Assembly (NCBI GenBank): GCA_046542255.1
Contig: JBKHBT010000001.1
Coordinates: 41,627 to 105,626, forward strand
DNA length: 64,000 nucleotides
Direction: 5' to 3'
Origin: Candidatus Zixiibacteriota bacterium
GTDB taxonomy: Bacteria; UBP14; UBA6098; JBKHBT01
Below, piece after piece: positions 33,306 to 48,038 of the stretch. The translations under genes were made by a program, and so were the position numbers. The notes under the pieces were generated by a model, which made no database searches, was not told where the DNA came from, and saw only the letters and a program-made list of their open reading frames with translations. How positions within the stretch are numbered: position 1 is the stretch's first letter; each line of letters opens with the position of its first letter.

Positions 33306-33428
33306 CTCTTTTAAAGCCATATATATATAACACATATATAATACTTAATACATATACTCAAAAGGCTTTACTGATGTTTTAGCCTGAAAAGTATGACAAT
33401 GCGGAACAGCGCATTGTCTGGATTAACC
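33306..33428. repeat. Copy A of a ~120-bp repeat element. It is inverted relative to copy B and contains the 9-bp-stem hairpin gacaatgcg-N6-cgcattgtc at 33395..33418
   Basis: The reverse complement of 33306-33428 aligns with 47921-48038 at about 90% identity. Differences are mainly indels in the (TA)n-rich tract. Confidence 0.8.
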
Positions 33429-33606
33429 TTTTATGGGCTCTACATTATCATTATCCCTTGCATAAGTTTTTGTGGTTTTTTCCTTTTCTATATATTCAGT
33501 GGAATTATATTAAATTCAATGTGAATGCCTTTAGAAGAAATTATGAAAGAAAACGATTGATTTTAGGTGATTTATAGCATATTTTACATCATTGTAAACT
33601 TATAGG

Positions 33607-34746
33607 ATGGGAAAAATGTGTCCAAGTTATGATGAGACAAGCGCAATAAGTAAGGTTCGGTATCTACAAAATACCAGTGCGGTCGAAGAACAATTAAATA
33701 AAAATTATGCCATTATCTATAATACCGCTGTCGATATAATGGATGTTGACAGCCTTGTTCTTTTTAAGTTTGACCGTAAAAAACAAGAGTTATATTCTGT
33801 AAAATACAAACTTGCCGGCCTCGAGTTTCGAATGAGCATCAATGAAGGCGTTACAGGATGGGTTTTCAGGACAGGAAAACCAGCGATTGTGAATAATCCT
33901 AAAGACGATCACCGATACTATCCACATTTCGATAGAAGATTTGAACTCGATACAAGAAATCTTCTTGCAGTCCCTATAAAGAATTCTTCTAATAAGCCAA
34001 TTGGTGTTTTGGTATTTGCTAATAAAAAAGGCGACTTTGACCAGGAAGACCTGGAATTGGCAGAGTCACTCGCTGGGCATATGAGTATTACTTTCGAGAA
34101 TGCAATTTTATACGAAGATCTAATTTTGACCTTCGAGAGCCTGGTCAATGTACTGGCATTTACTATCGATGAACGGCATAAGATTTCCAGTGGACATTCT
34201 CATAGGGTAGCCGAATATTCCGAGAAAATTGCTCAAAAAATCGGTCTAAATCAACATGAAACCGGCCTTATATGGCTTTCTGCTATGCTTCATGATTATG
34301 GCAAAATCAGCATACCCGACAAGGTACTTCGCAAAGAAGGCCAGCTCGATGAAAAAGAGATGGAACTTATGAAAAAACATGCAAAAAGTACTTATGATAT
34401 GCTTAATCGAGTTTATTTCAATGAACAAATGTCCAAGATTCCGGAGATCGCTGCCTATCATCACGAGCGAATAGATGGCAAGGGCTATCCATTTGGCCTT
34501 ATGGGAGATCAGATACCCCTTGGCGCTAAAATTATTGCTGTTGCAGATGTTTACGATGCTATGACAAGCTGGCGCGAATACCATGACCCATATTCCAGAG
34601 AAATTGCTGTAAAAGAGCTAATCGATGGCAAAGGGACTAAATTCGATGCCAAAGTTGTAGAAGCTTTCACCGATTTACTCGAAAGCGGCGAGCTGGACCA
34701 GATTGAAAAAAGAGCGACTAATTTTCATAAGGTTAATAATCTTTAA
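33607..34746 (+). CDS. GAF-domain HD-GYP phosphodiesterase (c-di-GMP signalling)
   Basis: 379 aa. N-terminal GAF-like domain. HD motif in LSAMLHDYGKISIP. HHERIDGKGYPFGL is the HD-GYP signature. Confidence 0.8.
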   Translation: MGKMCPSYDETSAISKVRYLQNTSAVEEQLNKNYAIIYNTAVDIMDVDSLVLFKFDRKKQELYSVKYKLAGLEFRMSINEGVTGWVFRTGKPAIVNNPKDDHRYYPHFDRRFELDTRNLLAVPIKNSSNKPIGVLVFANKKGDFDQEDLELAESLAGHMSITFENAILYEDLILTFESLVNVLAFTIDERHKISSGHSHRVAEYSEKIAQKIGLNQHETGLIWLSAMLHDYGKISIPDKVLRKEGQLDEKEMELMKKHAKSTYDMLNRVYFNEQMSKIPEIAAYHHERIDGKGYPFGLMGDQIPLGAKIIAVADVYDAMTSWREYHDPYSREIAVKELIDGKGTKFDAKVVEAFTDLLESGELDQIEKRATNFHKVNNL

Positions 34747-34850
34747 TACCCAGATTCAGTGTTAACCTGAAGTTCCACAATCATTTCAACAGCAAACCCA
34801 ATTTATTTTACCAAAAATATCAATATATTTACTTTTAATATTTGATAATG

Positions 34851-46855: not shown

Positions 46856-47826
46856 CAAAATTCGATGTAATCCAATACGATAATTCATTAAGAGATAAAT
46901 GGCAGGATTTTCTGGAAAGGTCCAATACCGGCCATCTTTTTCACGACCAGAGGTTTTTTGAATATCATCCAAAAGATAGATTTGTCAATAATCATCTTCT
47001 TTTCCATAAAGGCAATAAGATAAAAGCACTTCTTACCGGTACTATTAGTGAAGATGAGCAGGGCAGAAATATCTATGTTTCTCATAGTGGAGCATCCTAT
47101 GGTGGCTTTGTCTTACCATTAGATAGTGGTATAAAAGATGCACATAATATTATGGAAGCTCTTCTGGAATATCTGCATGATAATGATTTTGACGGCCTAC
47201 GAATTACCTTTGCACCAATTTTTTATTCTGAGATGCCAAATCATCATATCGAATTTGTAATGCTTAAGAATAGTTTTGAGATTGTCCGTTCTGAGCTTTC
47301 CAGCATTGTTCATTTCCAGGATACTATCGATGATAATTTTGCACTTTTCAGGCCTTCCACCAGGACAGCAACAAGAAAAGCACTTAAAGAAGGTGTCGAG
47401 GTCCGTTTCAATGAAAACTGGGTTGAATTCTATGAAATATTGGAAAAAAATCTCGCCATGCGTCACGATGTCAAACCGACTCATACTCTGGATGAACTTT
47501 TGAAACTAAAAAAACTTATTCCCGGCAGAATCAAGCTACTATCATCATTCAAAGATGATAAAATGCTTGCTGGGGTTGTTACATTCGAACTAAACGAGAA
47601 AGCGATTCTTGCTTTTTATATCAGCCATAGAAAGGAATACCAGAAACTTCGTCCATTGAATATCCTTTTCTATGAACTTTTCAAATGGGGCATCGAATCC
47701 GGTTATGAATTTCTGGATTTCGGTACCTATACCCTCGATATGGAACCTAATTTTGGTCTTGCACGATTCAAAGAAGGATTTGGTGCTCGCGGTATTTTCC
47801 GAAGCACCTGGATGAAGATTTTCTAA
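46852..47826 (+). CDS. GNAT-fold acyltransferase of the FemAB / BioF2-like (Acetyltransf_6) type
   Basis: 324 aa. Duplicated GNAT-like halves. C-terminal …LRPLNILFYELFKWGIESGYEFLDFG…GLARFKEGFGA resembles FemAB/CelD-family ends. Assigned without a search, so confidence is low. Confidence 0.4.
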   Translation: MTKFDVIQYDNSLRDKWQDFLERSNTGHLFHDQRFFEYHPKDRFVNNHLLFHKGNKIKALLTGTISEDEQGRNIYVSHSGASYGGFVLPLDSGIKDAHNIMEALLEYLHDNDFDGLRITFAPIFYSEMPNHHIEFVMLKNSFEIVRSELSSIVHFQDTIDDNFALFRPSTRTATRKALKEGVEVRFNENWVEFYEILEKNLAMRHDVKPTHTLDELLKLKKLIPGRIKLLSSFKDDKMLAGVVTFELNEKAILAFYISHRKEYQKLRPLNILFYELFKWGIESGYEFLDFGTYTLDMEPNFGLARFKEGFGARGIFRSTWMKIF

Positions 47827-47920
47827 AGAGAAAACGCCAAAAAAGTTGTCGAGTAATCATTGTTTTCATATAAAGGCAATATGGATAACTTAATAATATT
47901 TGAATTAATTTTGTCTTTCG

Positions 47921-48038
47921 GGCTTAAAATCCAGACAATGCGCTGTTCTGCATTGTCATACTTTTCAGGCTAAAACATCAGTAAAGCCTTTTGGGTATAT
48001 ATATTAAGTATTATATGTTATATATGGCTTTAAAAGAG
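47921..48038. repeat. Copy B of the ~120-bp repeat element (inverted relative to copy A). Hairpin at 47934..47957 has a G-T pair closing the stem
   Basis: See copy A. Located in the 873-bp intergenic leader upstream of the giant Big_1 gene. Confidence 0.8.

Follow-up and report, generated by a model that had tools for sequence, protein, structure and literature searches.

The window, by which we mean the whole 64-kb stretch of DNA that was analyzed, contains two copies of a short repeat, A and B, in opposite orientations (Table 1). Copy A is located in the divergent spacer between an 83-aa gene and a gene with GAF and HD domains, and copy B is located between a FemAB-like gene and a giant gene with Big_1 repeats. 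An earlier note on this DNA had given the sizes of these two spacers as 570 and 873 bp, and both values were correct (33037–33606 and 47827–48699, respectively, with the start of the giant gene at 48700). Copy B starts 102 nt past the stop codon of the FemAB-like gene and ends 662 nt short of the giant gene. The database entry for the GAF-HD gene (P0241) is 376 aa, 3 residues shorter than the ORF in the window, and implies a start at 33616.

The gene content that the note had described for the 14.5-kb block between the repeats was borne out by Pfam matches: GAF and HD, nitroreductase, DUF59/FeS_assembly_P, MgsA/RarA, two serpins, Lnt, Reg_prop, and FemAB/GNAT-like. Its observation that there is no transposase or integrase inside the block also held in our Pfam scans of the large ORFs, which covered 159–23441 and 28569–52998; the 1693-aa ORF at 23473–28554 and the giant gene past 52998 were outside these scans.

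Table 1. Positions of the two repeat copies, their predicted parts, and the genes on either side of them.
Feature	Position	Strand	Description
83-aa gene	32785..33036	-	Outer flank of copy A; weak AsnC ligand-binding-like match
Copy A	33306..33424	+	119 nt, 5'-CTCTTTTAAAGCC to CATTGTCTGGATT-3'; profile nhmmer E = 1.5e-33
Variable TA-rich tract, copy A	33319..33357	+	From alignments; contains the 8-nt indel relative to copy B and most differences from the L006 copies
Hairpin H2, copy A	33364..33385	+	Conserved; AGGCT, 12-nt loop (TTACTGATGTTT), AGCCT; copy B equivalent at 47967-47989
Hairpin H3, copy A	33395..33418	+	Conserved, 9 bp; GACAATGCG, loop GAACAG, CGCATTGTC
GAF + HD(-GYP type) gene	33607..34746	+	Inner flank of copy A; domain scan
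FemAB/GNAT-like gene	46852..47826	+	Inner flank of copy B; 100% identical to MFP4458024.1 from a Candidatus Zixiibacteriota MAG
Copy B	47928..48038	-	111 nt, inverted relative to copy A; profile nhmmer E = 3.5e-31
Hairpin H3, copy B	47934..47957	-	8 bp and one A.C mismatch
Giant Big_1/invasin-D3 repeat protein gene	48700..64000	+	Outer flank of copy B; >5100 aa, continues past the window

Analysis of the 64-kb window with a repeat finder identified inverted arms of 89 nt at 33336–33424 and 47928–48016 that are 97% complementary and have 14503 nt between them. In a gapped alignment the match extended over 33303/33306–33424 and 48041/48038–47928, with 89.3% identity over 122 columns (E = 7.8e-45). 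Comparison of A and B revealed 107 matches, 4 mismatches, and a single 8-nt gap, which is within the TA-rich tract. These values agree with the description in the note of inverted repeats of ~120 bp with ~90% identity and with indels confined to a (TA)n tract. The limits it gave for the repeats were right for 33306–33424 and 47928–48038, while the terminal positions 33425–33428 and 47921–47927 are just beyond the part that is common to the two copies. The similarity ends abruptly, with CTCTTTTAAAGCC as its limit at one end and ...CATTGTCTGGATT at the other end, and the only other sequence common to the two spacers is a 13-nt chance match. That A and B are the sole long non-coding repeats of the window was also confirmed, as no other inverted pair >40 nt was found in it and the remaining repeat families were short or were in the coding repeats of the Big_1 and serpin genes. 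A profile search (nhmmer with --max) of the window and of L001–L009 returned no further or degenerate copies beyond those described here.

In the alignments, the 5' end of the element (CTCTTTTAAAGCC) is short and conserved, a variable TA-rich tract comes next, and the 3' half, which is again conserved, contains two predicted hairpins that we termed H2 and H3. The sequence of H2 was identical in A, B, and one of two further copies on a metagenome contig (L006b), and the other copy on that contig (L006a) differed by one change in the loop. The H2 and H3 stems were invariant but for one pair-breaking change in copy B. Because of this invariance, conservation of the structure is indistinguishable from recent common origin, and covariation is uninformative. 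No coding capacity was found in the element, as only chance ORFs of ≤43 aa overlapped the copies and none of them was common between copies.

The earlier note had proposed that the repeats might be the ends of an acquired island or might promote inversion of the DNA between them, so that the 14.5-kb block would move or flip as a unit. Several features are in line with such a role, including that the inverted repeats enclose genes that are in part secreted or accessory-looking and that a stretch of 89 nt at 97% identity, as is present in the core, suffices for RecA-dependent recombination. In addition, the interior of the block differs from that in relatives, in which the GAF-HD gene is followed by an HhH-GPD gene (the window orthologue of which is at 12806–13477) and in which HD and AIRS genes, both absent from the window, precede lnt. 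However, the breakpoints of these rearrangements relative to the relatives, at ~34747–34850 and upstream of lnt, are inside the block and away from the repeats. The junctions next to the repeats, on the other hand, are preserved in relatives that do not have the element. In one of these (L008), an 80-aa orthologue of the 83-aa gene (81% identity) and the GAF-HD gene are divergent and ~120 bp apart, versus 570 bp in the window. In two others (L001 and L002), the order of lnt, Reg_prop, the FemAB-like gene, and the giant Big_1 gene is unchanged, with all four on the plus strand, and the spacer between the last two genes is 319 and 382 bp, respectively, versus 873 bp in the window. Neither junction is broken or flipped in these relatives, and by this comparison both junctions are ancestral and in their ancestral orientation.

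Other properties of the block also argue against its being a unit. Core genes (rarA, lnt, and DUF59) are within it, and its composition is like that of the left flank, with a GC content of 0.397 versus 0.419 and a correlation of tetranucleotide profiles of r = 0.96. No tRNA was found in a search of the window, and no integrase, recombinase, invertase, or transposase was found in the scanned ORFs. Lastly, the same element is present in unrelated contexts on the metagenome contig described below. As judged from gene order and composition, the block is not an island delimited by the repeats, nor is it inverted in comparison with the relatives. We consider both the island and a fixed inversion to be largely refuted, and movement or flipping of the whole block in one piece is very improbable. 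It is nevertheless possible that the 89-nt inverted repeat could act as a RecA substrate for homologous inversion.

We scanned JGI metagenomes for an exact 21-mer from the H2 hairpin. This returned contig L006, which is 1210 bp in length, and a second sequence, L005. L006 has a full copy of the element at ~825–999, the aligned bases of which are 90–91% identical to those of A and B. A second copy, at 1–72, is inverted and partial, and the contig begins within it. The known copies are four at four sites: two in the window and two on this one short contig. The full copy interrupts an ORF for an IS1634-family transposase. Intact homologues of that transposase (58–63% identity, PF01609) read QVNYG-LLTD across the insertion site, and removal of 172 nt from L006 restores QVNYGLLTDERG and a stop-free frame, exactly as in the intact homologues. 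This restoration of the frame indicates that the element is inserted, mobile DNA, and the case for its mobility is that of a single insertion event on one metagenome contig. The L006 element also has a partly duplicated 5' module, and the internal partial duplication was detected with the nhmmer profile. A Zixibacteria MAG encodes a truncated version of this transposase (P0122, MFP4459970.1; 91% identity). The accession of this protein is ~1950 from that of the window protein and, based on this, L006 probably comes from a related population.

Other scans returned little. In L005 only the hairpin and 8 of the next 9 nt matched, in a spacer after a purC-like gene, and we treated this as a chance match; by our own estimate, ~0.3–1 random matches would be expected in the metagenome 21-mer scan. 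The sole match of a 21-mer from the 3' half in 185,579 species genomes was on a Nitrosopumilaceae contig (L004), which did not extend past the 21-mer and was also considered chance. Viral contigs (three scans), and plasmids and phages (blastn), produced no matches, and a search of the literature for Zixibacteria together with MITE found nothing.

Overall, our data make it probable that A and B are copies of a small (~106–119 nt) non-coding, non-autonomous mobile or dispersed repeat of a Zixibacteria lineage that were inserted separately. Each copy would have entered an AT-rich intergenic spacer that was already present in the ancestor, between the 83-aa and GAF-HD genes for A and between the FemAB-like and giant Big_1 genes for B. 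With two insertions, their inverted orientation would then be a coin-flip result, and the intervening 14.5 kb would not represent a unit. The two insertions would also have enlarged what are now the two largest spacers of the window. The element likely moves by transposition, with the enzyme supplied by a gene at another locus of the genome; neither a parent insertion sequence nor a transposase with matching ends turned up in the scanned window ORFs, on L006, or in the 21-mer genome scan. At their 3' ends A and B have in common five extra nucleotides (GGATT) beyond the L006 copy. This is not simply explained by independent transposition, and one copy could derive from the other by a different route.

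The predicted structure of the element also bears on a different proposal, namely that the copies are small RNA genes, or cis-regulatory modules at the RNA or DNA level, and were duplicated to control their neighbors. On both strands the copies fold more stably than shuffled sequences (copy A, z = -3.7 and -3.5; copy B, z = -2.4 and -2.9). Across all copies the best-conserved portions are H2 and H3, and three of the four contain a TATAAT hexamer. Terminator-like hairpins were scored as well. On the minus strand H3 of copy A is followed by ATACTTTTCA and has a terminator-like score, and on the plus strand H3 of copy B, 108 nt past the FemAB-like stop codon, is by pattern match a terminator-like hairpin with a T-rich tail. 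Small RNAs derived from MITEs and repeats that are terminator-like are already known (PMC10969869). However, one copy is within, and disrupts, coding sequence, and orientation and distance to genes differ among all four copies. We read no conserved -35 element at a fixed spacing from the sequences, there is no covariation, and a conserved promoter-like site that belongs to the giant gene itself is retained well away from copy B, ~600 bp beyond it.

Searches with Rfam 15 also ran counter to a known RNA, as there was no match in the window at gathering thresholds. For the spacer of A, only noise was returned at E-values up to 10 (best 20.5 bits versus a gathering score of 52), and nothing was returned for the spacer of B at E-values up to 5, or for L005 and L006. 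We had also considered a hammerhead-like reading of CUGAUG...GAAA, which was rejected as there was no stem II, the GAAA was not kept in L006, and there was no Rfam match. Readings as an integron attC or a dif-like site were rejected since no recognizable core motifs were seen on direct reading of the copy sequences. These data indicate that the reused regulatory module the earlier note had raised as an alternative is quite unlikely, with both position and orientation relative to genes varying among the four copies. If the copies are instead separately inserted mobile repeats, the terminator-like hairpin after the lnt, Reg_prop, and FemAB-like genes is possibly a side effect.

The ends of the element provide some indication of how it might have been mobilized. 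Terminal inverted repeats were absent in A, B, and L006b, as comparison of the first 50 nt with the reverse complement of the last 50 nt gave scores of 10–15, each below its own cut-off (the 95th percentile of the shuffles of that copy, 14–16). No unambiguous target-site duplication was found across the three complete copies. All three are flanked by CT..CT (TCT..TCT in two), and these flanks, being the same in each, are inseparable from the sequence of the element. Three of the left flanks end in CTC and one in TTC, which is too few for a motif. On sequence grounds, a non-DDE route (HUH/Y1, serine-recombinase, or IS110-like) is suggested by the missing terminal inverted repeats, by the subterminal position of the 3' hairpin, and by the CT..CT on either side.

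A more specific form of the mobile repeat explanation is that the element is a palindrome-associated transposable element (PATE), i.e., a gene-less derivative of IS200/IS605 or IS607 type that is mobilized in trans, and that its structured 3' half may be the remnant of a guide-RNA (omega RNA) scaffold. In addition to the lack of terminal inverted repeats and of a clear target-site duplication and the CT or TCT on both sides of all three complete copies, this is consistent with the position of H3, a perfect 9-bp hairpin in copy A, which ends 6 nt from the 3' boundary. Gene-less derivatives, often with omega RNAs, have been described for this family (PMC10055086). However, the 5' end has only the variable TA-rich hairpin, which is unrelated to the GC-containing hairpin at the 3' end, and Rfam returned nothing above noise even with the relaxed E-values given above. 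Neither tnpA nor tnpB was found in the scanned ORFs of the window or on L006, and with three complete copies a target motif is inseparable from the element. We regard the PATE assignment as unlikely. Slightly less doubtful, although still a tentative suggestion, is that the element is the first member to be seen of a Zixibacteria family of small mobile elements that lack terminal inverted repeats, a family not yet described, and that it is mobilized by a non-DDE enzyme of one of the types listed above, in which the invariant 3' module of two hairpins would be a functional recognition or guide-RNA-like structure and not passive sequence.

The interest of these results is mainly for annotation, with the island and invertible switch removed as a false lead. 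A small repeat family is added for an uncultured phylum, which helps in repeat masking and in the interpretation of contig breaks in Zixibacteria MAGs (e.g., L006 starts inside a copy). If it is true that a non-DDE or RNA-guided system mobilizes the element, it would modestly extend the range of PATE-like elements on record.

The element belongs with the small dispersed repeat or MITE-like class, as a new member. The note had suggested MITE-like remnants, which holds loosely, in that the same element is present at unrelated sites on another contig, but not with respect to terminal inverted repeats, by which MITEs are defined. In its size (111–119 nt in the window and a 172-nt net insert in L006) and its dispersal (four sites on two contigs, one of them in a transposase ORF, with the orthologous spacers of relatives empty) the element resembles MITEs such as Correia/CREE of Neisseria, ERIC, and MITEAba12. 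Like it, these are ~100–170 bp, non-coding, AT-rich, and mostly intergenic, fold into hairpins, sit at unrelated loci, and can disrupt genes; unlike them, it has neither terminal inverted repeats nor a clear target-site duplication. PATEs are similar to the element in having no terminal inverted repeats, a subterminal hairpin near one end, and no obvious target duplication. Typical IS200/IS605 ends carry similar hairpins, whereas the hairpins at the two ends of the element are dissimilar. REPs are 20–40 nt with a conserved GTAG head, and in REPINs they are paired tens of nucleotides apart. These RAYT-mobilized repeats likewise form palindromic hairpins outside genes and may be found as inverted pairs, but the element has no GTAG head, is a composite unit of 110–120 nt, and its copies are 14.5 kb apart. 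The pneumococcal repeats SPRITE (rho-independent terminator-like), BOX, and RUP are short, dispersed, and modular, and cluster with or insert into mobile elements (PMC10969869). Although they are from a different phylum and have no sequence relationship to the element, whose terminator is a pattern match only, they resemble it in having terminator-like hairpins and a variable internal part, and in their association with mobile DNA, as in the L006 copy inside an insertion-sequence gene.

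Screening of the window with a repeat finder yielded one pair of inverted arms at 33336-33424 and 47928-48016 (89 nt, 97% complementary, 14,503 nt between them), and gapped alignment widened the match to 33303/33306-33424 versus 48041/48038-47928 (89.3% identity, 122 columns, E = 7.8e-45). The alignment of the two repeats, copies A and B, comprised 107 matches and 4 mismatches, its single 8-nt gap falling within a TA-rich tract, and their similarity stopped sharply at CTCTTTTAAAGCC at one end and CATTGTCTGGATT at the other. The inverted pair described in the earlier note is thus borne out, as is its statement that these are the only long non-coding repeats in the window: the repeat finder returned no others of comparable length, and the remaining families were short or lay within the Big_1 repeats or the serpin paralogues. 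The sizes reported for the two spacers were also correct (570 bp, 33037-33606; 873 bp, 47827-48699, the giant Big_1 gene starting at 48700), and the genes listed for the enclosed 14.5-kb block agreed with Pfam.

In the 5'-to-3' direction of copy A, a short conserved head is followed by a variable TA-rich tract and then by a conserved 3' half that contains the hairpins H2 and H3 (see the table). On both strands the predicted folds were more stable than those of shuffled sequences, with z scores of -3.7 and -3.5 in copy A and -2.4 and -2.9 in copy B. This is expected of palindromic hairpins, and the z scores do not indicate the relevant strand. Read on the other strand, H3 precedes ATACTTTTCA and has a terminator-like score in both copies; a putative terminator after the lnt, Reg_prop and FemAB-like genes is a plausible side effect of the element. 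Neither terminal inverted repeats nor a tRNA was found in it, the two copies have no ORF in common, and searches of Rfam, even at permissive thresholds, and of plasmid, phage and viral collections gave no match.

Features of the repeat element, in the order of the copy A strand
Feature	Window coordinates	Sequence or size	Remark
Copy A	33306-33424		plus strand
Copy B	47928-48038		minus strand
Conserved head		CTCTTTTAAAGCC	copy A strand
Variable TA-rich tract		30-40 nt	
Hairpin H2	33364-33385	AGGCT, 12-nt loop, AGCCT	
Hairpin H3	33395-33418	GACAATGCG / GAACAG / CGCATTGTC	9-bp stem; ends 6 nt short of boundary

Comparison with relatives showed what each junction looks like when the element is absent. 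The FemAB-like protein beside copy B matches MFP4458024.1 of a Candidatus Zixiibacteriota MAG (125-kb contig) at 100% identity, the next relatives being 56-58% identical. Relatives' contigs L001 and L002/L003 show the window's order and strand for lnt, Reg_prop, the FemAB-like gene and the giant Big_1 gene, and no part of the element is present in their FemAB-like/Big_1 spacers (319 and 382 bp). The window, L001 and L002 all retain, immediately ahead of the giant gene, a TTGACT-N16/17-TATATT promoter-like site and an AGGAGG ribosome-binding site; in the window the promoter-like site lies ~600 bp beyond copy B. This gene encodes a secreted Big_1/invasin-D3 repeat protein of >5100 aa that continues past the window end (48700-64000); its orthologue in L002 (from 11351 onwards) has 6710 aa. 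At the other junction the comparison is with L008, which belongs to the assembly of L003. Its orthologue of the 83-aa protein is 81% identical and is encoded on the minus strand, divergently from the GAF-HD gene, and the ~120-bp spacer between the two genes also has no element. The genes flanking each repeat were therefore already neighbours, in the same orientation, before the element arrived.

These ancestral junctions bear on both roles proposed for the repeats. Had the 14.5-kb segment been inverted and the inversion become fixed, the junction partners would have been exchanged, contrary to what is seen. The pair is a putative substrate for RecA-mediated inversion, a plausible side effect. 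An acquired island with its ends at the repeats would lack the synteny across them that is found here, and the block is native by composition: its tetranucleotide profile correlates with that of the left flank at 0.96, with a GC of 0.397 vs 0.419, the repetitive giant gene being the sole outlier. A Pfam scan of large ORFs (159-23441 and 28569-52998) found no transposase, integrase or invertase, in agreement with the earlier note for the block.

Gene order does differ from that of relatives, with breakpoints inside the block rather than at the repeats. In L007, L008 and L009 an HhH-GPD (Ogg-like) gene directly follows the GAF-HD gene; its orthologue in the window (12806-13477, 52-67% identity) lies 20 kb leftward on the same strand, which places a rearrangement breakpoint just after the GAF-HD gene (34747-34850). 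HD and AIRS genes, both absent from the window, precede lnt in relatives. Because these stand where the window has two tandem serpin genes (40568-43007; 395 and 413 aa, with a 61-nt stretch in common at 74% identity), the serpins may be lineage-specific. The block also contains a 452-aa ORF (36779-38137) that has no Pfam match; its AT skew is strong, reaching 0.28, and short direct repeats (ACCAGAACAAGGAC...) occur inside it. This ORF corresponds to the Tyr-rich or charged disordered protein of the earlier note.

A search of JGI metagenomes for the 21-nt H2 hairpin identified a 1210-bp contig, L006, that brings the known copies to four, two in the window and two on this one contig. Over aligned bases its full copy shows 90-91% identity to A and B, whose head and 3' hairpin end it also has; the second is partial and inverted at the very start of the contig, which therefore opens within the repeat, as happens when multi-copy sequences are assembled. 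The full copy sits within the coding sequence of an IS1634-family transposase. The site is ungapped (...KGKLQVNYG-LLTDxRGCP...) in intact homologues (58-63% identity, PF01609), and removal of 172 nt from L006 restores the frame as ...QVNYGLLTDERGCP... without a stop codon. That the same gene resumes in frame at the adjacent codon rules out an assembly artefact and shows that this DNA was inserted. About 62 of the 172 nt duplicate part of the element's 5' TA-rich module in tandem (L006 825-892 vs 891-955; nhmmer E = 0.0017 for 825-892), and the remaining ~110 nt equal copy B in size. This duplication suggests that slippage or recombination readily affects the TA tract. Another IS1634-family transposase, MFP4459970.1 of a Zixibacteria MAG (91% identity to that of L006), is truncated at ...KGKLQG, 5 codons ahead of the L006 insertion point; its accession lies ~1950 from that of the window's protein, and so both probably come from the same MAG.

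The 21-mer scans gave two further matches. The single match in species genomes, a set that does not include the source genome, was on a Nitrosopumilaceae contig (L004) and was rejected as a chance 21-mer. On a metagenome contig of another organism (L005, 8313-8343), the exact 21-nt H2 hairpin and 8 of the 9 nucleotides after it lie in a spacer downstream of a purC-like gene, and the rest of the element is absent; this is probably chance and less likely a conserved hairpin motif.

Overall, copies A and B most likely represent two independent insertions of a small non-autonomous mobile repeat into AT-rich spacers. Since two such insertions have an even chance of inverted relative orientation, the fact that they bracket 14.5 kb is without significance, and the element and its arrangement are an ordinary feature. 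Both spacers are very AT-rich (GC ~0.33 around 47-49 kb) and ~450-550 bp larger than in relatives; with the element subtracted they are still ~330-440 bp longer, and no repeat or Rfam match was detected in the extra DNA. CT flanks all three complete copies on both sides (TCT in two), a number at which a target duplication or crossover dinucleotide is inseparable from element sequence. The same CT on both sides, a perfect hairpin near one end and the lack of terminal inverted repeats point to an HUH/Y1, serine-recombinase or IS110-like route rather than a classical DDE-derived MITE. Copies A and B also have GGATT in common past the end of the L006 copy, which our explanation leaves unaccounted for.

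The element functionally resembles Correia and ERIC elements, which are MITEs, and the pneumococcal SPRITE, BOX and RUP repeats. The term MITE-like, used in the earlier note, holds in the loose sense of a small dispersed mobile repeat and fails in the strict sense, as terminal inverted repeats define strict MITEs. A typical IS200/IS605 end pair requires 5' and 3' hairpins that are alike; those of our element differ, which sets it apart from PATEs. It does resemble PATEs, gene-less derivatives of IS200/IS605 (PMC10055086). The MITEs and pneumococcal repeats named above have terminator-like hairpins, a modular build and a tendency to insert into other mobile elements (PMC10969869), and we file the element only as a new member of the wide grouping of small repeats that are dispersed, mobile and intergenic.
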